A stretch of 64,000 nt of DNA from an uncultured Polaribacter sp. (GCF_947495205.1 NZ_CANLXV010000009.1:1243-65242); one strand, 5' to 3'. Counted from the first letter of the stretch, positions 4,904-25,054 are shown. Numbers and translations are program-made. The notes: generated by a model from the sequence alone, not told the origin.

Positions 4904-7900
4904 ATGAAACTATCTGGAGAAATAACTCGTTTGAGAAAAATTAGTGTAATACTTTTTATTTTAATTTCAATCAACACTTATTCACAGTTTTTACATAGGA
5001 GTTGTGATAATGGTGCTTCAAGCTTTAATTGGAGCACAACACCAACTGGTAATAATAATTTTGACTGGGTTGATGGAGATTTAACAAATACACTTAATAA
5101 TGTAGATGGCAGCGGTATAAATATTACCTACACTTTTTCTGGAGAAACTACTGCTTTAGGTCAGTGGTTGGGAAGCACATCCACAACAAACTCTCCTGCT
5201 GTTGGTATAGATGCAGAACCTGCTGAGGCATTACAATTTTTTACAAATGGTTTTACAACAGGAGCTGGTGTAACAATTACAATAGAATTTAGTACACCTG
5301 TATTTTCTGTTGGTTTTGATTTGTTACATATAAACGGAAACGGAACTAATGGAGACAGATTTACAATTACAGCTATAGATACTTTTAACAATACAATTTT
5401 CCCGACATTTACTAACGCTTTGAACCCCTCATACACGTCAGATGAAAATACAGGAGTTATAGATTCTAATAATAGTGCTTCTGCAACCGGAGATGATGAC
5501 AATATTGGAGTAAATTTTTCTGATAACGAAAAAATAAACTCAATTACCATTGTTTGGCAAGACTGTACAGCTTGTACAGTTGGTGCAGTTCACGGAAGTG
5601 GTATTTCTGGATTAACTTTTTGTGAAAATTTTGATGATGTAGATGGAGACGGCGTTGCAGATAACGTAGATATTGATAATGATAACGATGGTATTTTAGA
5701 TATAGTAGAAGGAGCTTGTCCTGGAACTCCATTCACAACTACACCCGATAGAATTATCGTAAATAATGGTGGTACTGGAGCTTTACAAAGTATAGATGTT
5801 TCTACTTTAGGCCTAGAGGTTGGCAATTTAATTTCTGTTAGTAATGTGAGAGCAAGAGGAGATATTGATGGAGGTGGAGCAAATGAAACTTTTAGTTTAA
5901 ATTTTAACAACAACATTATAGATAGTGACTTATTTGTTAATACTGCCCAATGTAGTAATACTTTAGATGCTGTTTTTCCGCAAGTAAATAGAACATTAAC
6001 AGTAATTGATATTGGAGGTGGAACCCCAGGTATTACAATTCAAGCAACAACAGCTTCGGGTGTCGGTAATTTTTGTAATGATGGAGGTGCTTTTGCATTA
6101 GAATATACAGTTGATTTAAATTGTGTAACATCCAGAGATACAGATAATGATGGTGTTCCAGATTATTTAGATTTAGATTCAGATAATGATGGTATTCCAG
6201 ACAATATTGAAGCACAATCTACAAATGGTTATGTAGCACCTTCTGGTTTAGATTTTGATAGAGATGGATTAGATAATGCTTATGATGATACACCTTCAGG
6301 AAGCACTACAGGTATAGGTTCTAATGGAATTACACCTCAAAATTCAGACAATTTAGATAATCCAGATTATTTGGCCTTAGATTCAGATAATGATGGAATT
6401 GATGACGTGGTAGAATCAGGAAGTGGTTTAGCAGAATCTGGAGGTCAAGTTACAGGCACTGTAGGTACAAATGGTTTAGTTAATACTTTAGAGAATGCAG
6501 ATGATTATACAGACCCAAATGGATCTTTTGACAACACACAATTTGATAACTTTCCAGATTCTGATGGAGATATAAGTACAGGTGGTGATGCAGATTATAG
6601 GGATGTACCAGGAATAGATACAGATAACGATGGTGTTATTGATAGTGTAGATTTAGATGACGACAATGATGGTATTCTTGATACCGAAGAAGACTTTGGC
6701 TGTAATCTTATAGTAAATTTTGGATTTGAAGAAAGTTCAGCGCCTAATCTTGGAAATAATAGAGATGCAAATATTTCTCCATGGTCCAATATTGGAAGAA
6801 CAAATGTAATAAGGGTAGATGGTACCACAAATTATATGAATGGACCTAATTTTGATGCACGAGGTGGTGCTGGAAATTATTATGATATTGTAGGTGGTGG
6901 TAGTATTTATCAAACATTTACAATTGGTTCAGCAAGTTTAGTAAGATATGGTGGTTATTTTTCTGCAAGAGATGGAAGAACAAATATTTCTGGAGCCGAT
7001 ATTTTAATTAGGAATGGTTCTGGTAATACAGGAACAATAGTATCCTCATTAGGCAATCAGACGGTAACAAATGATTCTTCTTGGGATTTTTTCGAAGAAA
7101 CTACCTTTTTATCAGCAGGCACATATACTTTTGAAGTTATTATAGATAATTCTTTTAATTTTGACGAATGTTTTTTTGAATATTTAACTGGTTGTGATGC
7201 AGATAGCGATGGTATTCCAAATTCATTAGATTTAGATTCTGATAATGATGGTATTCCAGATGTTATAGAAGCTGGAGGTACAGATGCAAATAATGATGGT
7301 AAAGCAGATGGCGCTGTTGGTACTTCTGGAAACGTACAAGGTGTGCCAAGTTCTACAAATAATGGTACAGGAAACACCCCAACCAACTCAGATGGAGACA
7401 CTATACCAGATTTCTTAGATATCGATGCAGATAACGATGGTATTACAGATAATATAGAAGGGCAAACAACCAATGGATATATTGCCCCAAGTGGCGTAGG
7501 TCCTGGGATAACAGATGTCAACCAAAATGGAGTAGACGATAATTATGAAACAGAAGGTAATATTGGTGTAAACCCTACAAATACAGACAATGCAGATAAT
7601 CCCGATTATCAAGATACAAATGCAGATAATGATGTATTTACTGATGTCGATGAAAACGGAGACGCTGATCCTTTTGCACTAGCAGATTCCGATGGAGATG
7701 GTTTAATAGATGCTTTTGATGATAATGATGACTCTGGTATTTCTGGGTCTACTGTAAACGATGGAGTTACACCTACAACTAAAATTACAAATACCACAGA
7801 TATTGTGAATGTTTTTGGAGATGCAGATGGTGACATTGGAACAGGAGGAAATGTTGACTATAGAGATGTGCCAGGTTTAGATTCCGATAACGACGGTATT

Positions 7901-10900
7901 GCAGATGTAGACGATTTAGATGATGATAATGATGGTATTTTAGATACTGTAGAAGATGCCTGTGCTTCATTTAGAACACCTGTAAGACAGCTAGCAAATA
8001 ACGGACCAGTTACAGACTCACAAAACATTGATTTATCTTCTTTAGGAGTAATTATTGGAAGTCAAGTAACTTTAAATAACTTGTTAGCTGACGGAGATTT
8101 AACCAATCCTGGTACTGAAGTGTTTTCATTAAGCATAAACTCTGGTACCCCTATTACAGGTTTGCAAACCGGAGTAGATTGTAACGGGAGTTTAATTCCT
8201 GTTACATCACCTATTACAGAAACAGTAACTGTTATTGATATAGGGTCTGGAATACCTGGTATATCATTAGAAATTAGTTATCCTGCAGATGTAGATTTTT
8301 GTCCATTTAGGTTAGAATATACCGTTGATATTGCTCCTGTTTCTTGTGGTGCCCCTTTAGATACAGATGGAGATGGAATCCCAAACTCATTAGATCTAGA
8401 TTCCGATAACGATGGTATTCCAGATGTTATAGAGGCAGGAGGTACAGATGCAGATAGAGATGGTAGAGCTGATGGAACTGTTGGCACTACAATTACTACC
8501 AATGGAATACCAAGCTCTGCAGGAACAGGAAATACACCACCAAATTCAGATAGCGATAGCATTCCAAACTATTTAGATATCGATGCAGATAACGATGGTA
8601 TTCCAGACAATATAGAAGCACAAACTACAAACGGCTATACTGCACCAAGTGGAATAGCTAATGGTATTACAGACGTTAATAATAATGGTGTAGATGACAA
8701 TTATGAAACAGAAGCATTAATTGGTTTAAACCCTGTAAACACAGATAATACCGATAACCCAGATTATATAGACACAGATACAGATAATGATGGCGTTTTA
8801 GATATTGATGAAAACGGAGATGGAGATACTTTTAATATAACAGATACAGATGGAGATGGGTTAGTAGACGCTTTTGATGATAATATTGGTTTTATAGTAA
8901 ACGATAACCATAACCCACCAGGACCAGCTAATTTAGGTGATATAGATAATGATGCAAGCAGCCCTTTTGGGGATGTAGATTATAGAGATACTCCAGATGC
9001 CCAAGGTACACCAATGATAACTCAAGTATATCAATTTGATAGCGAAAGGTGGATAGAAATTACGAACATTAGTACAACCAATTCAATAGATGCCTATACG
9101 GTAAAAATTCAATTGTATAAAAATAGATCAGGAGATCAAACAGGTGTTGTGCCAGATGTGGCTTTTACTATTCCATCAGTCATACAACCTGGTCAATCTG
9201 TTTTATTTAGAGATGGAAATACCGTTTCAAGAAACATCACAAATACGGTTGCTACAAACCCCACTGTTGCTGCTTCTGTTATAGAAAACAATGCTATAAC
9301 CGCTATTGCTGATGCTAACGATATCATTACTTTATCTACCTCCATTTTTATAGATTCTTGGGAAAATCGTTATGATGTAGTGCAACAAGTTCCTAATAAA
9401 ACATCTTTTGTAAGAATAGATGAAACATTAGTACCTAATGTAACGTACACACCAGAAGAATGGGTTGTATTTATAGATGATGCATTAGATCCTTTTGAGT
9501 TTTTATCTACAGTAGCAGAAAGACACCCACATGATCCTTTAATCTCAGAAATCGAAAACGCTAATACAGATGCTAACACTTTATTAGGTTTACATCGAAT
9601 AGAAAAAACAACGAGAACAGCTGGTAGTTGGAACAACGGTTTCCCAGATAGATCTAGATTTGTGTCTATAGATGAGAATTACAATCACCAAAATGTAAGA
9701 CTGAGTGCACGTAAACTAGAAGTGTTAAATACTAATATTTTAGCTTTAGACAGTCAATTTTTAGTAGTTACAAACAATGTAAATATTGCAGACAATGCAG
9801 AGATTCGCTTAGTTGGTAGCAGCCAATTTATTCAAACCCATTTAGGAGGATCAGATATTTCTGGAAACGGTAAATTATATGTAGAGCAAAACTCTACTTT
9901 AGCAAATATTTACAGATATAATTATATGAGTTCTCCTGTAACTTCATTAAATACTGCCGCTACTTATACTGTAGAAGATGTTTTAAAAGATGGTACAAAT
10001 CCAGTATCATTTGCAGGTACTGTTGGTCAAGGAAGTACAGATATTGCTAGAGATATTAACTTTGTAGGTGGTTTTGATGGTAGCTTTGGTACACCAATAA
10101 ATATTGCAGATTATTGGATTTACGCTTTTTCTAGTGCGAACGGACAAAGAGCTAATTGGATTCAGAAATTTAAAGCTGGAATTATGAATAACACAGAAGG
10201 TTTTATATTTAAAGGTCCAGAAGTAGCACAAAACTATACATTTGTTGGAAACCCTAATGATGGTGATCTAAACGCATCTGTTGGTGCTAATGAGTCTTAC
10301 CTTTTAGGAAACCCTTACCCATCTTCTTTAAATGCTTTAAAATTTATAAAAGACAATTTAAACTCTATAGATGGTAGCGTGTATTTATGGGATCATGTTG
10401 GTGAGCAAGAAACAAGTGTCACAGATTCAAGAGGCCATAATTACAGAGGTTATGTAGGTGGCTATGCAACCATAAACCTTTCCATGTCTGTTGGCGCTTT
10501 AGGTTCAGCATCTGCTGCTGCTGCTGGTCCTTTTAATATTTCTATTGAAGCAGAAAATGCTGTAACAAATTCAACAACAGTAACAGACGGTGCACTAGAT
10601 GTGGTAACATTAAATAACGCTGCAGACTTTATACAATTCGATAGAATTACAAGAGCTACTGATAAAATTACATTAAGTTATAAAGCAAACACTACCAAAG
10701 GAATAAGAGTATTAGTAAACAATGTAGCAATAGGAAATTATGATTTAGACCCTAGTGGCAATGTTTACGCAGATTTTGATATTATAAGTTGTTTACCTGT
10801 TGGAGCCACCATTAGAATTGAATCTTTAGACGGTAATAATTTATCTTTAGATAAAATTAGTATTAGTGATGATGATGGTTTTATAAGTTGTGTTCCTTCC

Positions 10901-11818
10901 GCAGGATCAGATGCATCACTATTTAAAACACCAGGAACATATTTACCTATTGGTCAAGGTTTCTTTATTGGAGGAGATAGCAATGGTGGCCCAATAGTAT
11001 TTGACAATAGTCAAAGAGAATTTGTTTCAGAAGCCTCTGGAAATGCAGTATTCTTTAAATCAGGAAAAAAAGCTAAAGAAAATAACCAAAGTGCCAAATT
11101 TAAAAATGGAGACTTTAACAGACTGCCTTCTATTAAGTTAAGTATGGACTTTATGAATACTGAAGGAATAAGTTTAAAAAGACAAATAGGAGTTTCTTTT
11201 AGTAGTAACAATTCATTTGCGTTTGACAAAGGATATGACAGCCCTATTCTAGATTTAGGAGCTACAGATATGTATTGGAAATTTGAACAAGAAGAGGCAA
11301 AACTTGTAATTGCAGGTATTCAAAGTTTCTCTAAAGGTTTACAAATTCCTTTTGATGTTGTTATAGATTATGATGGCACTAACATTTTTAAAATAGATGA
11401 TATTTTTAATATTGATAGTGAAGTTTACCTTTTAGATAAGTTAACCAATAAAACGCAACTAATTTCTAAAGAAAATGAAGTTGGTTTACAGTTAAAAAAA
11501 GGAGTTTATACAGAACGATTTGCGCTTGTATTTAAAGAAAACACGGTATTAAATACAGAAAATACACAAGCAATTGCAAACGAAAATATAGCTGTTTACT
11601 TAGATGGAGGTTCAAATGAATTAGTCATTGAAAACAAACACAATCAAACTATTAATAAGGTAATAATTTACAATATATTAGGACAAAAAGTTTCTTCTTG
11701 GAACAATTTAGAATCTGCTACAGAAAACAGATTAAAAGTAAATAAATTATCAGAAACTATTTATATTGTAAATATAGAAACAGACAAAGGGTTTGTAAGT
11801 AAAAAGATAAAATTCTAG
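4904..11818 (+). CDS. giant secreted surface protein with thrombospondin type-3-like Ca-binding repeats, a lamin-tail-like domain and a T9SS C-terminal sorting domain
   Basis: 2304-aa ORF with a signal/anchor N-terminus. It has dozens of DxDxDGxxDxxD motifs ([16 protein letters not shown]). An LTD-like segment reads [10 protein letters not shown]...YTVKIQLY. The C-terminal about 80 aa ([11 protein letters not shown]...[19 protein letters not shown]) looks like a Por/T9SS tail. Confidence 0.85.
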
Positions 11819-12225: not shown

Positions 12226-13113
12226 ATGATTAAACGAACACTTTTTTTCGCTAAAAAATTTTCTTTAACCACAAAAAACAATCAACTTGTAATAAGTAAT
12301 AATGAGGTACCAGACAAAACAATACCCATTGAAGATATTGGGTACATTGTTATAGAAAACCAACAAACCTATATTTCAATTCCTGCTTTAAATAAACTAA
12401 ATGAAAACAATGTAGCTGTAATTTTTTGTAATGAAAAACATTTACCACAGAGCATGTTGCTTACACTAGATAATCATCATATACAACATGAGTTATTTAA
12501 ACATCAAGTAAACGCTTCAGAACCTTTAAAAAAGCAACTTTGGCAACAAGTTGTACAACATAAAATACATAATCAGGCAGCTCTTTTACATAAAATTGGC
12601 AAAAACAAAAACCCTTTAGCCTACCATGAATCTAAAGTTTTAAGTGGCGATACAACAAACAGAGAGGCAGTAGCAGCTGCTTTTTATTGGAAAAACATAT
12701 TTGACTTCAATTTTAAAAGAGAAAGAACAGGTATCTACCCTAACCTCTTTTTAAACTATGGTTATATTATTTTAAGAGCCGCTGTTGCAAGAGCGCTTTC
12801 TGGAAGTGGCTTATTAAATACACTAGGCATACATCATAGTAATAAATACAATGCTTTTTGTTTGGCAGATGATATTATGGAGCCTTACAGACCTTTAATA
12901 GATGCTAAAGTGATTGAAATTATGCAAAAATATGATGAGCAGGATTTAATAACCCCTATAAAAATAGAATTGTTAAGTGTTTTAACCCAAACGGTATATT
13001 TTGAAGATAAAAAAAGCCCCTTAATGGTAGCTTTATCTAACACTACTAGTTCTTTACAAAATTGTTTTTTAGGAAAATCTAGAAAAATCAATTATCCAAA
13101 ATTATGGATTTAA
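12226..13113 (+). CDS. cas1: CRISPR-associated endonuclease Cas1 (type II)
   Basis: 295 aa. Cas1-like C-terminal catalytic region (LNTLGIHHSNKYNAFCLADDIMEPYRPLID). It overlaps cas2 by 10 nt and lies next to the CRISPR array. Confidence 0.9.
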   Translation: MIKRTLFFAKKFSLTTKNNQLVISNNEVPDKTIPIEDIGYIVIENQQTYISIPALNKLNENNVAVIFCNEKHLPQSMLLTLDNHHIQHELFKHQVNASEPLKKQLWQQVVQHKIHNQAALLHKIGKNKNPLAYHESKVLSGDTTNREAVAAAFYWKNIFDFNFKRERTGIYPNLFLNYGYIILRAAVARALSGSGLLNTLGIHHSNKYNAFCLADDIMEPYRPLIDAKVIEIMQKYDEQDLITPIKIELLSVLTQTVYFEDKKSPLMVALSNTTSSLQNCFLGKSRKINYPKLWI

Positions 13114-13433
13114 ACGCATATAGAATTATGTGGTTATTTGTATTTTTTGATTTACCAACAGAAACAAAAAAAGACAGAAGAAATGCGCAACTATTTCGTA
13201 AAAATCTTTTAAAAGACGGTTTTACAATGATGCAGTTTTCTGTTTACATGCGCCATTGTGCAAGCAGCGAAAGTGCAGATACTCACGAAAGACGCATAAA
13301 AACGTTATTGCCTCCTTTTGGAAAAGTAAGTGTATTAAGAATTACAGATAAACAATATGGCAATATTTTAAATTATTGGGGTAAAGTAGAAACCCCAAAA
13401 GAACCACCACCCATGCAACTTGAATTATTTTAA
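13104..13433 (+). CDS. cas2: CRISPR-associated endoribonuclease Cas2
   Basis: 109 aa. N-terminal WLFVFFDLPT beta-strand with the conserved Asp, then MQFSVYMR. The start ATG lies in ATGGATTTAA, which overlaps the cas1 stop and suggests translational coupling. Confidence 0.85.
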   Translation: MDLNAYRIMWLFVFFDLPTETKKDRRNAQLFRKNLLKDGFTMMQFSVYMRHCASSESADTHERRIKTLLPPFGKVSVLRITDKQYGNILNYWGKVETPKEPPPMQLELF

Positions 13434-13443
13434 CAGGATAAAA

Positions 13444-13490
13444 AAAATGCTTCAAATAAAGCAATTATGTCTTTATAAGAAGCATTTTTT
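13444..13490. terminator. bidirectional terminator-like hairpin between cas2 and the distal end of the array
   Basis: aaaatgcttc (13444-13453) pairs with gaagcatttt (13479-13488), with inner pairing ataaag/ctttat. An A-run precedes it and a T-run follows, so it could terminate both cas1-cas2 (+) and the array transcript (-). Confidence 0.5.
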
Positions 13491-13542
13491 ATTACGATAT
13501 TTTCTTTTAATCTTTTCAATATCAGAAGCTAACACAGCAACT

Positions 13543-16500
13543 AATATCGTCTTTTCTAATCTTTAATCAAACCACAACTGTAGATTAGTTTATTAGGTTC
13601 TAAAATTAATATCGTCTTTTCTAATCTTTAATCAAACCACAACTATTAAGTGTAATAATTAGTTTGTTAACTAATATCGTCTTTTCTAATCTTTAATCAA
13701 ACCACAACTTTTGTCCAACTTGGCATTCAGTTTGTATTAATATCGTCTTTTCTAATCTTTAATCAAACCACAACAAAGGCGCATAAGTTTTAAATTGATT
13801 AAATAATATCGTCTTTTCTAATCTTTAATCAAACCACAACCTGCTTGGGCTAATTCTGAATACAATGAAAAATATCGTCTTTTCTAATCTTTAATCAAAC
13901 CACAACTAATCAAGTCGTATTTAGGCAAAGGGTAAAAATATCGTCTTTTCTAATCTTTAATCAAACCACAACTCTACTTTAAATTTACCTTCTTTAAATT
14001 CAATATCGTCTTTTCTAATCTTTAATCAAACCACAACATACAGTAACCTGTTAACCTTAAATCTATTAATATCGTCTTTTCTAATCTTTAATCAAACCAC
14101 AACATGTGTTTTATTTTTTATTAATTTGTACTAAATATCGTCTTTTCTAATCTTTAATCAAACCACAACTTTTTAACTTCGTTAAATGATTTATGATTAA
14201 ATATCGTCTTTTCTAATCTTTAATCAAACCACAACTCTGGCGAATAAACATTAAGAGGTTGTTGCAATATCGTCTTTTCTAATCTTTAATCAAACCACAA
14301 CATTGCTATATCACACATATATTTTGTATTTAATATCGTCTTTTCTAATCTTTAATCAAACCACAACATGATATGCTATTATATATAAGTAAGGAATAAT
14401 ATCGTCTTTTCTAATCTTTAATCAAACCACAACTGTTTATTATTAGTCACTAAAACAAGTTCGAATATCGTCTTTTCTAATCTTTAATCAAACCACAACA
14501 ACAAAACATCTCTTAACGCTTCTTTATAGAATATCGTCTTTTCTAATCTTTAATCAAACCACAACTGCGTGTGCAAGGTGGTAGCAAAGAAAGTAAATAT
14601 CGTCTTTTCTAATCTTTAATCAAACCACAACTCTGTTCTATCTATATTTGTTGTAAATCTTAATATCGTCTTTTCTAATCTTTAATCAAACCACAACTAA
14701 CGGTGACAATGAATATATAGCAAACCAAATATCGTCTTTTCTAATCTTTAATCAAACCACAACATGATTGCAAAGGATTATGCAAAACACGTTAATATCG
14801 TCTTTTCTAATCTTTAATCAAACCACAACTCTATTTGTTTGTGTTTTTTCTTCATCTTAAATATCGTCTTTTCTAATCTTTAATCAAACCACAACCTACT
14901 TGCACCAAAGGCACTTTCTACAGCAAATATCGTCTTTTCTAATCTTTAATCAAACCACAACTTAAATGAGATGTGTAAAATATTAATTGAAAATATCGTC
15001 TTTTCTAATCTTTAATCAAACCACAACAATACCAACACAATGAGCAAAGAAATTAAGAATATCGTCTTTTCTAATCTTTAATCAAACCACAACTGCATCC
15101 TGATTAAATTGTAAAGATTTAACAATATCGTTTTTTCTAATCTTTAATCAAACCACAACTGATAATAGGAAAAGCTTTAAGTGATGTTTAATATCGTTTT
15201 TTCTAATCTTTAATCAAACCACAACACAAGATTAATTTGTTTTTGTAAAACAACTAATATCGTTTTTTCTAATCTTTAATCAAACCACAACATTAACCCT
15301 CTAACTGCACCAGTTAAACCAAATATCGTTTTTTCTAATCTTTAATCAAACCACAACATAAATTAATCATATTAACAAAGGCGGATTAATATCGTTTTTT
15401 CTAATCTTTAATCAAACCACAACACTTCTTTAAACTTGCCCCACGCAAATTTTAATATCGTTTTTTCTAATCTTTAATCAAACCACAACACCATCATCTA
15501 AAGAATAAGTAAAACATATAATATCGTTTTTTCTAATCTTTAATCAAACCACAACTTACAAATGGCGGATTACAGAAAATGACAAATATCGTTTTTTCTA
15601 ATCTTTAATCAAACCATAACTTACAAATGGCGGATTACAGAAAATGACAAATATCGTTTTTTCTAATCTTTAATCAAACCACAACTGGTCATAGACCAAA
15701 TACCAACTTCCACCTAATATCGTTTTTTCTAATCTTTAATCAAACCACAACTTACAAATGGCGGATTTAAGGCATATTGCAAATATCGTTTTTTCTAATC
15801 TTTAATCAAACCACAACTTACAAATGGCGGATTACAGAAAATGACAAATATCGTTTTTTCTAATCTTTAATCAAACCACAACTGGTCATAGACCAAATAC
15901 CAACTTCCACCTAATATCGTTTTTTCTAATCTTTAATCAAACCACAACTTAACGATAACGGATTTAAGGCATATTGCAAATATCGTTTTTTCTAATCTTT
16001 AATCAAACCACAACACGCTGTAATAGTTACTAATGAGAATATTTAATATCGTTTTTTCTAATCTTTAATCAAACCACAACTTCACAACTGTCCTGCCAAA
16101 TCTAGTGAGTAATATCGTTTTTTCTAATCTTTAATCAAACCACAACTTCGAGGAAGGCTTATTTACTGATTCTAGTAATATCGTTTTTTCTAATCTTTAA
16201 TCAAACCACAACTAGTAAGGTAACTTGCAATGATATAAGTTGAATATCGTTTTTTCTAATCTTTAATCAAACCACAACAGTGCGCTAGACTATTTTAATA
16301 AGTGGGGTAATATCGTTTTTTCTAATCTTTAATCAAACCACAACAAAAACAGTATTAATTCTTTAAGTTTAGGAAATATCGTTTTTTCTAATCTTTAATC
16401 AAACCACAACAGTTCGTCTTTTAATGATTCCATAGCTGTTAATATCGTTTTTTCTAATCTTTAATCAAACCACAACCAGTTAATGTTGGTACAATAGACG

Positions 16501-17002
16501 ATAGAAATATCGTTTTTTCTAATCTTTAATCAAACCACAACTGCATAATGTAAACGGCTACTGGGTAAGTAAATATCGTTTTTTCTAATCTTTAATCAAA
16601 CCACAACTATCACAAATCAATCAACGATAAAAACGAAAATATCGTTTTTTCTAATCTTTAATCAAACCACAACCTTTCATACGCACCCAATAATCACCTT
16701 TAAAATATCGTTTTTTCTAATCTTTAATCAAACCACAACTAACCAAACTTTACATTGTATTTTTTCTTGAATATCGTTTTTTCTAATCTTTAATCAAACC
16801 ACAACCTATGGTGGATAATCATAACTCTAGTAGGTAATATCGTTTTTTCTAATCTTTAATCAAACCACAACCCGGTTGCACTTATGAAGATATGCAGCTT
16901 AATATCGTTTTTTCTAATCTTTAATCAAACCACAACTCTATTTTCACCTTCTTACTCATGGCTATAAATATCGTTTTTTCTAATCTTTAATCAAACCACA
17001 AC
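13543..17002 (-). CRISPR. CRISPR array of 53 repeats of 36 nt and 52 spacers (44 x 30 nt, 8 x 29 nt); crRNA sense is the minus strand
   Basis: I enumerated every unit by hand. The plus-strand repeat is AATATCGT[C/T]TTTTCTAATCTTTAATCAAACCACAAC, which in crRNA sense is GTTGTGGTTTGATTAAAGATTAGAAAA[G/A]ACGATATT. Polarity follows from complementarity to the plus-strand tracrRNA anti-repeat at 21447-21472. Confidence 0.97.
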
Positions 17003-17060: not shown

Positions 17061-20000
17061 TTATTTACAAAAACTTATTTTACCTGTTGATGATATTGTA
17101 AAATCATAACCTTGTACTAAAATATTTAATTTACTAACCTGAAGTCTAATCTGTTCTCTTTGTATATTAAAATCTACGCTATAAACTTCTTTTAATTCTG
17201 AAGCTTGTTTTGCTTCAGAATGTGGTCTAAAAGTGAGTCTTCCTTGAGCATCGAATTTCGCTAGTTTATAAAGTCTTTTTAACAAATCAAGTTTGGGTAA
17301 TTCTAAAATTTCATCAATGTTTTCATTATACATCAAAACCATATCACCTTTTTTTAAGATATACTTTAAAGGTAAATTAGATTTTATATGAGAACTTTCC
17401 ACTAAATTATAATTTCTTTTATGTTCATTATTACTAAATTTATAATATTCTCCAGCAGTAATATTATTTATAATTTGAAAATCACGTTTGAATCTTCCTT
17501 TTGAATTGGTTCCTTCATAAATGGCCATACAATAATTACCATCATTCTTAGCAAAAACATGTTGTTTATGTTCGTGCTTAGAAACATCTCTATGTTTTTT
17601 AATTTCTAAAGGAACTTTTACATCTGTAGTAAAATATCTTATTTTTTTTATTGGTATTGGGTTGCCATTTTTGTTTGGTAATTTATAAAGTTCATTTTCT
17701 ATTTTGTTAGTTAGACTTTCTATTTGCGCTCTAATTATTACTTCTTCTTTATCATTTACTTTGTTAATTTGCTTTTTTAAAGATTCAATTTCTTTTTTTA
17801 AGGCCTTTTCTTGTTTTCTACTTTCTGTTACAATCTCTTTAATTTTATCATCAACAATATTTTTTAAATCTGTATCAGAAAAATTTTCTAATGGTTTTCT
17901 TAATACATATTTAATTACTTCTTTAGTTTCTCCTTTTTTATCTGTTTCTTCTCTTTTTATTGCACCGTAAAAACTTTCTTTATGCAAAGCTCCCCTAACA
18001 GTATCACCTTTTTTGTATTTAATTTCTCCTTTTGCATTTCTTTGTATAATACCACGTTTACGAATGGCTTTTTTACTTTGAATAGGCAAAACGTCTGGAA
18101 CATGATGACTAATTAAAATATTCTCATCAAAATTTTTAACGTCTTTATTAAATCCCTTCCAAGGAATTCTATGTTGAAAAGATGGTTTTGGTTTACCATA
18201 ATATTTATAATCTTCATAATTATGATAATATGCTGCCAAAGCATCATTTATATCTTTAGAACAACAAGCAACAACTACTGCATCTTTTGCATGGTGTGCA
18301 TGATTTATTCTTTCTTTTTTATCTAAACCCCAAATATCTCTTAAATTAGATGTTGTTTTTCCTTTTACAGGATATACTTTTGTAAACAAAGACTTTAAGA
18401 ATAAGTTGCCATATTTACTAATAATGCCAATATCTACAGATTGACTGTTTTTAAAATTTCTAGGAATTTCAGTTATCGTAAAAGTTTTGTATTTGTCTTT
18501 CAAGTAGTTATGCTCAAAACGTAATTTGGTTCTTTTTTGTATATTACCATCTCTACTCTCTTTTGTTGCAGCTACTCTTACTTTTTTTGTAAGATCTCTA
18601 ATTTGTTTATCTAAACTTTTATATTTAGCAAACCAATGTTTTATTCTGGGTAAAATTTCTTCATGATTATTACATTCACTTGGTATTTTATTCTTTTTTA
18701 AATCTCTGTTATAAACTGAACAACATAATGTTTTATTAATTTGAGAATTATCTAAACTTTTACTTCTTGGTATGGTATGTTCTATGTCAAATTTGGGGTT
18801 TGCTCCTATAAAATCACAAATACTTATATTTTTACCTGTGTATAAGCAAACTCTGTTTTGCTCAATCCAAAGTTGATATTTTAAAACGTCATCTTGTGAA
18901 GGTTCAATATCTAAGTTGCATTGTTCTTTGTACAGTTTTTTTATAGCATCTGTGTATTCTTTTCTATTATTTTGAAGCTCATTTTGCCATTGTCTAATAG
19001 CAACTCTTTCATTGGCACTTTTAAGTTCTCTTGCCATTTCAATACGAATAATCGTATTTTCATCTATTACATCTTCTTTAATTAATTGATTAATAACTTT
19101 ACGCAACTGATGCAAAGCACGCATTGCCATGGGGTTTTTAATAGAAGAAATTAATGGGCTACCTAAGTATAATTTACCATCCTTATCACTTCTCTTCGCT
19201 TTATTATAAACTTCAATGGCAGATGGATGATAGAGCTTCTTTAAACTATCTTTATTTACATTAAAATTATCTCTTAAAAAATCTTTTACACGTTCATCTA
19301 ATGTTTCTTTTTTCAAAAATTCTCCTCGACCGGTATTTAATTTCATTTGAACAGAAAAAAGAGTAAAGCTATCATCTAAAATTGTTTGTTGCTCTTCTTT
19401 AGAAAACGATTCCCAGAGTTTTAAACCATAATAACTTTTAATGTTTTTATGAATATCTTTTTTATAAGCTTTAATTACAAAAGAATTATTTTCATTCCAA
19501 GTTTCCTTATTGTCTTTTACATTTTTAATTAAACCGTTAATAATATCAACTTTGTTTCTGTAAATATTGTAGGTATTAATAATTGAAAAAATTTCTTTAT
19601 TAATTATTTTTCTATACTCATTATTATCCCAAATTTCTTTTGGTAAAACAGTTTTTAAGTTTGCTAAAAACACAGCATGCGAATACAATAAGCCTTTTTC
19701 TAAATAAGGTAAAATGTTACGTATTGCCTTTAAACTTAAAGAACCATAATCTTGTTTTAGTTTTATTTTTGAAAATTTAACAGCTGTTTTTTCATCACAG
19801 TTTAAATATTTAATAACAAATTGTTTCAGCTTTTCAGTTTTATCAAACCTAAAAAGCACGTGCCAAATAGCATCAATAATTTGATGTTCTGTTTTATCAG
19901 AACCGTCTTTATTTTTTTTGTTAAAATTTTTAAGTAAATAAGTTTTCCAATCTTCGCCAAAAACTGCTCTTAAATTGGCAATTGTTGGGCAACCACTAAC

Positions 20001-21338
20001 ATTTGTATAATTACCAAAATTAAACAAGACATCAAAATCGCCTTTATTTTTATCTTTATAATATGCTGACTTTAAATTTTTGGGAGTTAGTTTATTTGCT
20101 ATTTCTGAGAAATCAAAATTTGGTTTTGATTTTCTATAAAAGAGTGGTTCTAAAATTGCTTTTTCTTTTGAATTTAAAAACCTTAATTTATCTTCTTCTG
20201 CTGTCTTAATTTTTACTGAATTTAAAAAACTAAACATTCTAAACAACTCAAAATCTGGATGTGAAATTGGTACACAAGCTTTATCATTTTCTAACGGACA
20301 TTTAGCAACTAAACCTTTTTGAGATTTTAATGGTCTTTGATAAAAAATAGCGTTTTCTATAGCTTCTTTTAATGATGTTTCTAGATTTTGTTTATCACAA
20401 ATTGTATTGAATTCTTGTAAATAATGTTCTTCTCTATGTGTGTAATTATTTCTTATTCTTATGCTATTTTTATGTAATCCATAAAAATACTCGCCTAAAG
20501 TATTACAATTTGCTTCTTGCATTTTAGTTGATAAATCGCTAATTGCGCTTTTAACTTTACCTAAAAACTCTTTTCGGTTTAAACGTTCTAATAATTTATC
20601 TTTTACAATATCAAATGCTACATTTATATTTTCTTTTAAGATAGCTTTAAAGGCTCTTTCTAGAGTAAATAAAGCTTTTGTATTAGCTTCTGCTTTATCA
20701 TAACCTTGAAGAAATTCGCCATAATTCTGTAAAAAACCCTTTGAATTATTGGCTTGTTGTATAATTTCTTCTATCTCACTATTTTTATCTTCAACAATAG
20801 AATTATCTGAAGTATCTAAACGATTACTTAAAAAACCACGTCTTTGTGCCATATGATAAAAAGCTCTTCCAAGTTCATGTTTATCACTAATAGTATTTAA
20901 ATTAAGTTTTTCTGTTGATGCTTTGAAACGAAAATAATAAGGATTTTTTACTTGCTCTTTTCGTGCTACTTTATCATCTTGATTATCTGTACTTAACCAT
21001 AATCTAAACGCATCATTTTTAGGATAAATCTTTTTGTATCGCCAGAGTTCTAATTCATCATCAGTCAATTTAGGACATAAATTATAGTCTGATAAAACTT
21101 TTAATAATTCAAGTTTCCTTAATTTTCTTCTGTATTTTAATTTTCTTGCACTTCTATAATCCGTTCTTTGTGCCGCTTTTGAACTTTCACTACTTGTTTT
21201 AGCTTCTATATTTACTCCTTCTGTAAAAATCCTAACACCTTTGTCTAAAAGTTTAAAATGTTTTTCACTTTTCTCTTTTTCAACAACTGCCCAACCAATA
21301 CTATTAGTTCCTAAATCTAATCCTAATATTTTACTCAT
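17061..21338 (-). CDS. cas9: Cas9 endonuclease, type II-C
   Basis: 1425 aa. RuvC-I ILGLDLGTNSIGWAVV (Asp8), Arg-rich bridge helix RSARKLKYRRKLRK, RuvC-II IRIEMARE, HNH DIEHTIPRS...NKTLC and RuvC-III HHAKDAVVVA. No csn2 or cas4 in the locus, which indicates subtype II-C. Confidence 0.97.
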   Translation of the reverse strand: MSKILGLDLGTNSIGWAVVEKEKSEKHFKLLDKGVRIFTEGVNIEAKTSSESSKAAQRTDYRSARKLKYRRKLRKLELLKVLSDYNLCPKLTDDELELWRYKKIYPKNDAFRLWLSTDNQDDKVARKEQVKNPYYFRFKASTEKLNLNTISDKHELGRAFYHMAQRRGFLSNRLDTSDNSIVEDKNSEIEEIIQQANNSKGFLQNYGEFLQGYDKAEANTKALFTLERAFKAILKENINVAFDIVKDKLLERLNRKEFLGKVKSAISDLSTKMQEANCNTLGEYFYGLHKNSIRIRNNYTHREEHYLQEFNTICDKQNLETSLKEAIENAIFYQRPLKSQKGLVAKCPLENDKACVPISHPDFELFRMFSFLNSVKIKTAEEDKLRFLNSKEKAILEPLFYRKSKPNFDFSEIANKLTPKNLKSAYYKDKNKGDFDVLFNFGNYTNVSGCPTIANLRAVFGEDWKTYLLKNFNKKNKDGSDKTEHQIIDAIWHVLFRFDKTEKLKQFVIKYLNCDEKTAVKFSKIKLKQDYGSLSLKAIRNILPYLEKGLLYSHAVFLANLKTVLPKEIWDNNEYRKIINKEIFSIINTYNIYRNKVDIINGLIKNVKDNKETWNENNSFVIKAYKKDIHKNIKSYYGLKLWESFSKEEQQTILDDSFTLFSVQMKLNTGRGEFLKKETLDERVKDFLRDNFNVNKDSLKKLYHPSAIEVYNKAKRSDKDGKLYLGSPLISSIKNPMAMRALHQLRKVINQLIKEDVIDENTIIRIEMARELKSANERVAIRQWQNELQNNRKEYTDAIKKLYKEQCNLDIEPSQDDVLKYQLWIEQNRVCLYTGKNISICDFIGANPKFDIEHTIPRSKSLDNSQINKTLCCSVYNRDLKKNKIPSECNNHEEILPRIKHWFAKYKSLDKQIRDLTKKVRVAATKESRDGNIQKRTKLRFEHNYLKDKYKTFTITEIPRNFKNSQSVDIGIISKYGNLFLKSLFTKVYPVKGKTTSNLRDIWGLDKKERINHAHHAKDAVVVACCSKDINDALAAYYHNYEDYKYYGKPKPSFQHRIPWKGFNKDVKNFDENILISHHVPDVLPIQSKKAIRKRGIIQRNAKGEIKYKKGDTVRGALHKESFYGAIKREETDKKGETKEVIKYVLRKPLENFSDTDLKNIVDDKIKEIVTESRKQEKALKKEIESLKKQINKVNDKEEVIIRAQIESLTNKIENELYKLPNKNGNPIPIKKIRYFTTDVKVPLEIKKHRDVSKHEHKQHVFAKNDGNYCMAIYEGTNSKGRFKRDFQIINNITAGEYYKFSNNEHKRNYNLVESSHIKSNLPLKYILKKGDMVLMYNENIDEILELPKLDLLKRLYKLAKFDAQGRLTFRPHSEAKQASELKEVYSVDFNIQREQIRLQVSKLNILVQGYDFTISSTGKISFCK

Positions 21339-21439: not shown

Positions 21440-21527
21440 GATTAAATTTCTAATCTTTAATCTTATCACAATAAGGCTATATGCCGTAGATGAAAATCTT
21501 TAGTCCTGCTTAGGTAGGACTTTTTTT
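21440..21527 (+). ncRNA. tracrRNA: tracrRNA, divergent from cas9
   Basis: The anti-repeat at 21447-21472 can form 24 bp with crRNA repeat nt 1-26, interrupted by a 2-nt UU/UU internal loop. It is followed by AAUAAGGCUAUAUGCCG (nexus-like GGC/GCC hairpin, 21475-21485), AGAU-GAAA-AUCU (21488-21499) and the terminator GUCCU...AGGAC plus U7 (21503-21527). The 5' end is estimated from a TAtaTTTa box at 21428-21435. Confidence 0.8.
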
Positions 21528-22855: not shown

Positions 22856-25054
22856 ATGATTAAAAAATTATTCCTTTTTATTTTTACCGTTGCATCTTTA
22901 AATGTTTTTTCTCAAGTACAATCTTATTACAGCGATGTAGATTTACAATTAACAGGTGTAGCCTTAAAAAATGCACTGGCAACTAAAATTACAGCAACTC
23001 ATGTTAATTTTTTAGATTATACACCAGATGTTTGGACTGCCTCAAAAGCAACGGACGTAAACCCAAATAACCCAAATGAAGTTTTATTAATTTATGGCTT
23101 TGAAAACGGTTCTGATAGCAATTTAGAAAACGATAGAACTAGAAACATTAACGTGAATGGTGGTGCAGCTTCAGATTGGAACAGAGAACACGTATTTGCT
23201 AGATCTCTTGGAAACCCCAATTTAGGAACAGTAGGTCCTGGTGCAGATGCGCATCATTTAAGACCAGCAGATCCTGGTAGAAATTCTTCTAGAAGTAATC
23301 GAAAATTTGGAAGAGGAACAGGTAATTCTGGTTTTTCTTCATTAGACACTCATCAAGGAAATGATGGCCCAAATACAGCGGCTTATTATCCTGGAGATGA
23401 ATGGAAAGGAGATGTTGCAAGAATGATAATGTATATGTACGTGCGTTATGGTAATGTTTGTTTACCAACTGCAGTTGGCGTTGGTAGCAATACAAATACG
23501 CCAGATGACATGATTGATTTATTTTTAAAATGGAATGTAGAAGATCCTGTTTCTGATTTTGAAAGAGCTAGAAATACCTATCATGAAAACACCAATAATG
23601 CTGCTGCACAAGGAAATAGAAATCCTTTTATAGACAACCCATTTTTGGCAACAAGAATTTGGGGTGGAGATTCTGCACAAGATACTTGGGGAATTTATAC
23701 ATCTAATGATAGAGAAGCACCAACAGCACCAACAAATGTAACAATTAACAACATTACTTTTACTTCCTTTAATATTTCTTGGACAGCATCTACAGATAAT
23801 GAAGCGGTAACCGGTTATGATGTTTTTGTTGATGGAACTTTAGCAACGCAAACCACTACCACTAATGCTACCCTTACAAACCTAACACCAAATACTAGCT
23901 ATGCAATAACAATTTTAGCTAAAGATTTAGTAAATAACAAATCTGCATTAAGTACTGTTGCAAATGGAACAACATTAGCAGATACTGTTGCTCCTTCTAT
24001 GCCTACTAATGTTATAGCTAACAATATTTCAGACACTTCTTTTACGTTTTCTTGGACAGCATCTACAGACAACAATGCAATTGCTTCTTATGATGTTTAT
24101 TTAAATAATCAATTAGACCAAAACGTAACAGGTACAACTGCTATTATAACTGGGTTGGCAGCAACAACAGCATATACAGCATACGTTATTGCAAAAGATA
24201 CCTCTGGTAATGTTTCTGTAAAATCTAACACCATAACTGTTACTACTATAGAAGGTGGCAATGGTGTTGCAGACGAATTATTTATTTCTGAATATGTAGA
24301 GCCAAATACCGGAAACAACAAAGCCATAGAAATTGTAAATCTTACAGGTAAAACTGTAAGTTTAGCTGGTTATTCTTTGCAAAAACAATCTAATGGAGGC
24401 AGTTGGGTAGATAATTTAGCATTAGACAATCAAAGCTTTATTTTACAAGGTTCTTCTGCAAGTATTTTACCAAATGATGTTTTTGTAATTATACACTCTG
24501 GAGCATCAGAAACAGAGTTAACTAGCAATGCAGATATGGAAGTACCAAGCAATGCTAATCCGCCTTATCAATTTGCATCACCTTTAAACTTTAATGGAAA
24601 TGATCCTGTTGGATTGTATAAAAATGGCGTTTTAATAGACATGGTTGGAGAGTTAAATAACTCTAGCAACCACATACAAAACATTACCTTAAGAAGAAAC
24701 GGAGATATTAGCAAACCCAACCCTGTTTTTAGTGAACAAGGAGAATGGGAAGCATTTCCTGTAAATACCTACAGTGGTATTGGTTCTTTTACGAGTACAT
24801 TAAGTACAGAAGACAACCAAATTTTAGACGCCATAAAGATTTTCCCAAATCCTGTAAAGGGAAATAACCTTTCTATTTCTAATAAAGAAGCGGTTACTCT
24901 TAAAATTTATAACGTCTTAGGTACTTTGGTAAAAACAGAAAAATTAAAAGCAAACGCTAAACAAATAGATATTTCTGCATTAACTTCTGGTGTGTATTTA
25001 ATTAATTTTATTTCTGGAGAAAAAACTAGCAGTAAAAAGTTTATAAAATTATAA
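22856..25054 (+). CDS. secreted endonuclease I fused to 2 x FN3, a lamin-tail-like domain and a T9SS C-terminal sorting domain
   Basis: 732 aa with a signal peptide. Endonuclease I-like motifs WNREHVFARS, AHHLRPAD and GNRNPFIDNP. Two FN3-like repeats (PTNV..I..SF..SWTASTDN). LTD-like ELFISEYVEPNTGNNKAIEIVNLTG. C-terminal FPNPV...LKIYNVLG...GVYLINF tail. Confidence 0.85.
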   Translation: MIKKLFLFIFTVASLNVFSQVQSYYSDVDLQLTGVALKNALATKITATHVNFLDYTPDVWTASKATDVNPNNPNEVLLIYGFENGSDSNLENDRTRNINVNGGAASDWNREHVFARSLGNPNLGTVGPGADAHHLRPADPGRNSSRSNRKFGRGTGNSGFSSLDTHQGNDGPNTAAYYPGDEWKGDVARMIMYMYVRYGNVCLPTAVGVGSNTNTPDDMIDLFLKWNVEDPVSDFERARNTYHENTNNAAAQGNRNPFIDNPFLATRIWGGDSAQDTWGIYTSNDREAPTAPTNVTINNITFTSFNISWTASTDNEAVTGYDVFVDGTLATQTTTTNATLTNLTPNTSYAITILAKDLVNNKSALSTVANGTTLADTVAPSMPTNVIANNISDTSFTFSWTASTDNNAIASYDVYLNNQLDQNVTGTTAIITGLAATTAYTAYVIAKDTSGNVSVKSNTITVTTIEGGNGVADELFISEYVEPNTGNNKAIEIVNLTGKTVSLAGYSLQKQSNGGSWVDNLALDNQSFILQGSSASILPNDVFVIIHSGASETELTSNADMEVPSNANPPYQFASPLNFNGNDPVGLYKNGVLIDMVGELNNSSNHIQNITLRRNGDISKPNPVFSEQGEWEAFPVNTYSGIGSFTSTLSTEDNQILDAIKIFPNPVKGNNLSISNKEAVTLKIYNVLGTLVKTEKLKANAKQIDISALTSGVYLINFISGEKTSSKKFIKL

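Follow-up and report, generated by a model that had tools for sequence, protein, structure and literature searches.

Within a 64,000-nucleotide (nt) stretch of DNA from an uncultured Polaribacter sp. [quoted passage not shown] Seven consecutive spacers of this array, numbers 31 to 37, are built from only four sequences. In the order of the coordinates they read a-a-b-c-a-b-d, where c consists of the beginning of a and the end of d. How did this series come about: by rearrangement of the array itself, by repeated sampling of the same invader, or by both? We favour the last answer, at a probability of roughly 0.55: one invader site would have been sampled in several versions (a, c, d and the nearby spacer 28), and misalignment of the repeats would have caused the duplications. 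As a whole, these spacers preserve well the traces of two known processes in a type II-C array; the one unusual detail is spacer c.

The duplicated spacer block

A first, sequence-only reading of the window gave coordinates and sequences for a, b, c, d and spacer 28, and a parse of the array shows that all of them are correct (Table 1). It also reported that a occurs three times and b twice, and that the unit a-repeat-b-repeat is duplicated exactly, 197 nt apart. This is borne out by sequence comparison: at that offset the two copies of the segment are identical in 137 of 137 nt. The limits of the duplicate are directly visible, on the left in the variant base 15617 of repeat 32 and on the right in the fourth base of c and d. 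Besides, the unit formed by a and its repeat recurs at a period of 65 nt, the copies differing solely at the same repeat base 15617.

For the block as for the a-a pair, the best reading is tandem duplication within the array, mediated by its repeats. Three things argue for this: the exact 137-nt copy, a similar duplication in a related array and the dominance of duplication in published surveys. For comparison we used 14 related arrays from the same genus, holding 312 spacers. One of them, in genome G288 (genome labels are our own), contains an exact duplication of a three-unit block (spacers 20-22 are the same as spacers 23-25) that involves unrelated spacers. In the SpacerPlacer survey, 86% of the duplicate-spacer events are attributed to duplications and 1% to reacquisitions (PMC11472070), and duplication is given as the dominant source of repeated spacers in the surveys that we cite (PMC11472070, PMC4524480). 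Spacer duplication by repeat misalignment, as treated by Kupczok et al. 2015 (PMC4524480) and Fehrenbach et al. 2024 (PMC11472070), produces identical units lying head to tail in mid-array and also multi-unit blocks, just as found here; by their account such events concern about 3% of the spacers in CRISPRCasdb groups. By itself the block duplication is ordinary. It departs from the duplications described in those two accounts in one respect: the copies differ in one spacer (c against d), and the 5-nt patch concerned is identical to a third spacer of the same block.

Could the seven spacers have been acquired one at a time, without any duplication? Two very strongly preferred protospacers of a recurrent invader would then have been sampled seven times, yielding d, b, a, c, b, a and a in turn. 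It is true that the seven spacers derive from only two sites, and the type II-C spacers of Flavobacterium columnare are described as being drawn from a limited protospacer pool (PMC8092290). However, a cell has nothing to gain from re-acquiring an a or b that it already carries, and the order a-repeat-b-repeat is repeated exactly. Given also the duplication of unrelated spacers in G288 and the small share of reacquisitions in the survey (PMC11472070), we consider this course of events highly improbable.

An error of assembly is hardly more credible, although the genome is a draft of 57 contigs and the identical 137-nt segment exceeds common assembly k-mers. Mixed array variants might, for instance, have been collapsed, with sub-populations carrying a-b-c and a-b-d threaded into one path, and none of the 24 sequencing runs found holds this stretch. 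Against this, the array lies inside a long contig, and the junctions b-R-c, c-R-a, b-R-d and a-R(variant)-a (R being the repeat) are each unique and must have been present in the reads. Given these junctions, the assembled order is by our reasoning the only path that uses each of them once. The comparable block duplication in G288, an independent genome, also speaks against an artefact.

Array polarity and the family of spacers a, c, d and 28

To place the spacers in time, the orientation of the array has to be known. Just past the start of cas9 the window holds a predicted trans-activating CRISPR RNA (tracrRNA), which contains an imperfect copy of the repeat on the + strand. Since the anti-repeat of this tracrRNA pairs with the minus-sense repeat (computed duplex energy -29.3 kcal/mol), the minus strand is predicted to be the one from which the CRISPR RNAs (crRNAs) are read. 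On the + strand, a spacer's head would accordingly be its seed end, proximal to the protospacer adjacent motif (PAM). A second indication comes from position 9 of the repeat, which is C in repeats 1-24 and T in repeats 25-53 (boundary at about 15093/15124). Because T is found at this position in 13 of the 14 related arrays, the C-type repeats are derived and newer, and the T-type block of 29 repeats older. This split is a clean marker of new repeats being copied from the leader-proximal repeat.

The two ends of the related arrays also differ in their state of decay. The last repeat on the cas2-distal side is degenerate in 5 of the 14 arrays; 4 more have truncated remnants of repeats past that end, and in 3 the distal end runs off the contig or locus. 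At the cas2 end, the repeat is degenerate in none of the 14. Together with the derived C-type repeats and the orientation described for F. columnare, this decay points to a leader on the cas2 side, i.e. at low coordinates. Because the leader lies there, the order of age is, from the oldest on, d, b, a, c, b, a, a, followed by spacers 30 and 29 and then by spacer 28; about 27 spacers are later still.

The type II-C system of F. columnare (Hoikkala et al. 2021, PMC8092290; Laanto et al. 2017, PMC5524643) resembles the present one in that it is described with the same gene set (cas9, cas1 and cas2) and an array of 36-nt repeats. Its arrays are reported to be transcribed toward the leader, which is the variable end, with the PAM end of each spacer facing the leader (PMC8092290). 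The same probably holds for the window, where tracrRNA pairing and the work on F. columnare suggest crRNAs transcribed toward the leader and a leader-facing PAM end. In F. columnare the array's variable end is also where the accounts place the phage-matching spacers of an arms race (PMC8092290, PMC5524643). Unlike the F. columnare locus as laid out in these papers, cas9, here on the strand opposite to cas1-cas2, and the tracrRNA lie beyond the far side of the array.

Turning to the spacers themselves, c has its first 16 nt in common with a and its last 20 nt in common with d. The description of c as the first 16 nt of a joined to the end of d, with a shared CGGATT at the junction, is accurate. 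So is the statement that a and c share the seed side whereas c and d share the 20 PAM-distal nt, which is confirmed via the tracrRNA anti-repeat. All 5 differences between c and d fall among the first, PAM-proximal 10 nt (15755-15761). Moreover, a, c and d begin at the same base and have a single PAM-proximal boundary and the same register. The longest runs shared by related spacer pairs measure 30, 29 (three times), 20 and 16 (three times) nt, whereas unrelated pairs share at most 10 consecutive nt, a length reached in 3 of 2652 comparisons (all pairs, both orientations). The CGGATT of a and d is shared in register, which is unusual, as only 15 of the 1035 unrelated pairs (~1.4%) have a same-register run of at least 6 nt.

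Within the family, the case for spacer 28 is the weakest. It had been put forward as a third variant of the 16-mer at the head of a. Compared with a alone, the ungapped match of 13/16 is within background, as 42 of 2352 comparisons score as high or higher. When a and d are taken together, however, the last 16 nt of spacer 28 agree with one or the other at 15 of 16 positions. The a/d consensus TTAMMRATRRCGGATT, allowing at most 1 mismatch, has 11 matches in 6,289,448 genome windows outside the array, and the chance expectation among the approximately 1350 windows of other spacers is ~0.0024 matches for this pattern, which was chosen post hoc. Spacer 28 can be regarded as an intermediate allele, which would mean that natural head alleles mixing a-like and d-like states exist. 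It overlaps a, c and d by 16 nt, carries 3 seed mismatches to a and c and 4 to d, and spans the predicted Cas9 cut site of these three spacers. By eye, none of the six reading frames is open and conservative in all four variants (a, c, d and 28), and we make no coding claim.

Related arrays show that duplication and re-sampling of variant invaders, the two processes proposed earlier for this array, occur independently in this CRISPR family, because the block duplication of G288 has its counterpart in same-register allelic pairs elsewhere. Spacers 23 and 26 of G136 match at 29/30 positions in the same register. Spacers 1 and 6 of G099 match at 28/30; both differences lie in the PAM-proximal head, and the newer copy adjoins the leader. 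No spacer is common to G000, the genome of the window, and the 14 related arrays.

Given the common boundary of a, c and d, the intermediate allele in spacer 28 and the allelic pairs in two related arrays, the best reading of the family is that a single invader site was sampled again and again in diverged variants. Cas1-Cas2, probably with Cas9 choosing the PAM, would have sampled one PAM-defined protospacer in several versions that have their PAM-proximal boundary in common, beginning with d and going on to a and then to c. Yet another variant would later have supplied spacer 28, whose register is displaced by 14 nt. If an invader carried the sequence of c, it would mismatch d within the 10 seed bases and a only PAM-distally, and so would evade the two older spacers alike; it would have arisen by recombination between an a-type and a d-type invader at the conserved CGGATT. 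The 3 to 4 seed mismatches of spacer 28 are likewise what would be expected from a variant that is no longer cut via a, c or d. Misalignment of the identical 36-nt repeats, either by replication slippage or by unequal sister exchange, would have duplicated the three-unit block (period 197 nt) and also the single a unit (period 65 nt), which leads to a-a-b-c-a-b-d. Of all this, the data show the sequences, the limits of the duplication, the crRNA strand (from tracrRNA pairing), the polarity of the array and the occurrence of both processes in congeneric arrays, whereas the succession of the rearrangements, a c-type invader in nature and the way in which it would escape are what we infer here.

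Escape through the seed or the PAM followed by new acquisition is a familiar arms-race pattern. The pairs c/d in the window and 1/6 in G099 resemble re-acquisition from escape variants, as in both the register is the same and differences are found in the seed. Between c and d, however, the seed differs at five of 10 nt, more than stepwise point escape would give, which points to replacement of the allele by recombination.

The origin of spacer c

The sequence-only reading had offered hot-spot re-sampling and recombination within the array as alternatives. In our analysis each finds its own place: duplication within the array fits the block and the a-a pair, re-sampling fits a, c, d and spacer 28, and c itself could stem from either.

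A number of observations weigh against sampling of a natural c. As the leader is on the cas2 side, natural acquisition of c after a should have given the order c-a-b-d. To get from there to a-a-b-c-a-b-d, at least two more rearrangements are needed, unless versions of the array that have c exchanged material with versions that lack it. Further, c fills the slot of the duplicated unit that is held by d in the other copy, and each half of it matches another spacer of the array to the letter, two facts that conversion inside the array predicts without any extra assumption. The tail of a and the tail of c and d show no similarity (3/13 positions, by eye); for this reason it may be that a is allelic to the protospacer only in part.

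Database searches add to these points. The search for protospacers that had been proposed yielded none for a, b, c, d or spacer 28 in INPHARED, PLSDB, IMG/VR, JGI metagenome contigs, GTDB genomes and 266 congeneric genomes, so that the single-locus origin, the PAM and a natural c-type sequence are all putative. Running blastn with 15490-16044 and with the whole array gave only weak, non-flavobacterial matches among the INPHARED phages and nothing among the PLSDB plasmids. Exact scans of IMG/VR returned 0 matches each for the c/d 20-mer, an a-specific 21-mer and a b 20-mer. The 16-mer at the head of a and c had 38 matches there and the tail 16-mer of spacer 28 had 29, none of which extends (best tail identity 8 of 13-14, which is chance level). 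The c/d 20-mer was matched 3 times in JGI metagenome contigs and once in GTDB genome contigs, and again no match extends.

In 267 genomes of the genus, a collection with one genome per species, the c/d consensus with at most 3 mismatches found the array itself only. BLAST of the whole array against the same genomes recovered the related arrays, a target of spacer 48 and a self-target of spacer 45 (see below) and nothing for a to d or spacer 28. The own genome contains no match to a to d beyond 17 nt, and in the 60 kb around the spacer-48 target in G135 no spacer except spacer 48 rises above background. Also to be counted against our reading, among the 24 sequencing runs that might have supported the assembly none contained more than 0.10 of the sampled words. 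Sequences X1-X4 comprised only repeat-length pieces (~34-42 nt) flanked by other spacers; the metagenomes behind them carry arrays with this repeat, but not this array.

It is also possible, though less likely, that spacer c was made inside the array and never acquired, short-patch conversion at a 6-nt microhomology having rewritten the seed of a duplicated spacer. The array a-b-d would first have become a-b-d-a-b-d. The head of the leader-side d would then have been overwritten from a neighbouring a copy, through short-patch gene conversion or double template switching, with entry in the identical 36-nt repeat plus TTA and exit in CGGATT, and the single a unit would have been duplicated afterwards. 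Besides the slot that c takes within the 197-nt repeat unit, several features suit this route: a(1-16) joined to d(11-30) reproduces c completely, its two parents are no more than two units away, and the point where they meet is inside the 6-mer that they share in register. By our reasoning the event count is no higher than for sampling of a natural c (3 acquisitions and 3 rearrangements). Also, no natural c-type sequence was found in the collections searched, although a-type and d-type sequences were likewise not found there.

Recombination depends on the length of homology, and resolution is expected to be far commoner in a 36-nt repeat than at 6 nt. From this general knowledge, an event that ended in CGGATT should be far rarer than one that ended in the next repeat, which converts the whole spacer. 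Spacer 28 moreover points to natural head alleles that mix a-like and d-like states, and natural re-sampling in the same register is seen in related arrays. Finally, our literature searches found no documented precedent for chimeric or hybrid spacers in CRISPR arrays. We also asked whether one unequal crossover at CGGATT could account for the duplication together with c. Such an event would predict either a chimera with the head of d and the tail of a in addition to the duplication, or c with loss of b; by reasoning it cannot yield the observed order.

The two origins of c differ in what they imply. If c is natural, four successive steps at one target site (d, a, c and spacer 28) are preserved in the array, among them an invader that escaped two spacers at once by recombination inside the protospacer. 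It would then be a compact natural example, in a marine-type flavobacterium, of how recombination drives escape from CRISPR and how the host adapts anew. If instead c was made in the array, duplicated spacers would have been remodelled into new guides without acquisition, of which we found no description in literature searches. Arrays could then gain guide specificities from their own spacers, a form of diversification independent of Cas1-Cas2. Whichever is the case, duplications and near-identical spacers affect strain typing by spacer order and the reconstruction of ancestral arrays.

The CRISPR-Cas locus and other spacers

The coordinates of all features are collected in Table 1.

Table 1. 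Features of the CRISPR-Cas locus, with positions counted from the first base of the window.
Feature	Position	Strand	Remarks
cas1	12226..13113	+	295 amino acids (aa); type II Cas1; Pfam Cas_Cas1 E 1.2e-25; NCBIfam cas1_NMENI 294.5 bits (cutoff 120)
cas2	13104..13433	+	109 aa; Pfam CRISPR_Cas2 E 3.4e-18; NCBIfam cas2 64.7 bits
Leader	13434..13542		Hairpin terminator, then ~50 nt conserved across the genus, adjoining repeat 1
CRISPR array	13543..17002	- (crRNA sense)	53 repeats of 36 nt, 52 spacers of 29-30 nt; parsed from sequence
Spacer 28	15358..15387	-	Last 16 nt (+ strand) a putative third allele of the a/d head, register shifted 14 nt
Spacer 31 (a, copy 1)	15556..15584	-	29 nt; array parse
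Repeat 32	15585..15620	-	Sole repeat reading CCATAAC (T at 15617); between the tandem a copies
Exactly duplicated 137-nt segment, copy 1	15618..15754		Sequence comparison
Spacer 32 (a, copy 2)	15621..15649	-	Array parse
Spacer 33 (b, copy 1)	15686..15715	-	30 nt; array parse
Spacer 34 (c)	15752..15781	-	a(1-16) + d(11-30)
Exactly duplicated 137-nt segment, copy 2	15815..15951		Sequence comparison
Spacer 35 (a, copy 3)	15818..15846	-	Array parse
Spacer 36 (b, copy 2)	15883..15912	-	Array parse
Spacer 37 (d)	15949..15978	-	Oldest family member; age from polarity
cas9	17061..21338	-	1425 aa; Pfam HNH_4, RuvC_III, Cas9_RuvC, Cas9_a; NCBIfam cas_Csn1 (TIGR01865) 425.5 bits (cutoff 100)
Predicted tracrRNA	21440..21527, ends approximate	+	Anti-repeat ~21446-21473, then nexus-like hairpin and terminator with T-run; read from sequence

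By gene content the locus is of type II-C, since cas9, a type II cas1 and cas2 are present and the neighbours include no other cas gene. HNH and RuvC domains are both found in the cas9 product. The other flanking open reading frames of at least 80 aa encode a 2304-aa protein with a type IX secretion system (T9SS) tail, RsmB and a secreted endonuclease I; neither csn2 (II-A), cas4 (II-B) nor any further cas gene is near the locus among them. An Rfam search reported no tracrRNA or other family above threshold. The order cas1, cas2, array and oppositely oriented cas9 is the standard layout in the genus, and the left, leader-side flank of the array is conserved in G011, G021, G024, G010 and G029. 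Between G000 and G011, identity is ~76% for Cas1 and ~88% for Cas2, but only ~27% for Cas9. This difference suggests that the effector module was exchanged, or diverged fast, relative to the adaptation module.

Targets were found for just two spacers of the array. Spacer 48 (16674-16703) matches G135 at 29/30 nt (C1:986897-986926; L107 2398-2427), with the mismatch at the PAM-distal end. The target is a phage-type replication-initiation gene of 321 aa (phrog_11233, E 4e-24) in a prophage-like region of this congeneric genome, and weaker matches of ~89% are found in several other genomes of the genus. Spacer 45 (16477-16505) matches a PL28 ulvan lyase gene of the own genome at 29/29 nt (G000:C13:1533-1561). 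In crRNA sense the flank of this self-target reads CATTTGGTAAA, with TAAA after 7 nt and not after 5 nt. For self-targeting spacers of F. columnare it is reported that the canonical PAM is absent or the spacing of its N positions altered (PMC8092290), and the altered-spacing cases of that account resemble spacer 45.

The trailer ends of the related arrays show two further features. In both G011 and G079, which are different species, the array ends with the same 30-nt spacer and, behind it, a truncated repeat; this is an old spacer conserved across species. In G288, G098 and G024 an inverted partial repeat is located just past the trailer end, ahead of a conserved ATGTCAA(A/T)GAAC motif; it begins like the minus-sense repeat though it is on the + strand. 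As to the wider neighbourhood, both proteins that flank the CRISPR locus, the one of 2304 aa (4904-11818) and the 732-aa secreted endonuclease I (22856-25054), carry T9SS C-terminal sorting domains.

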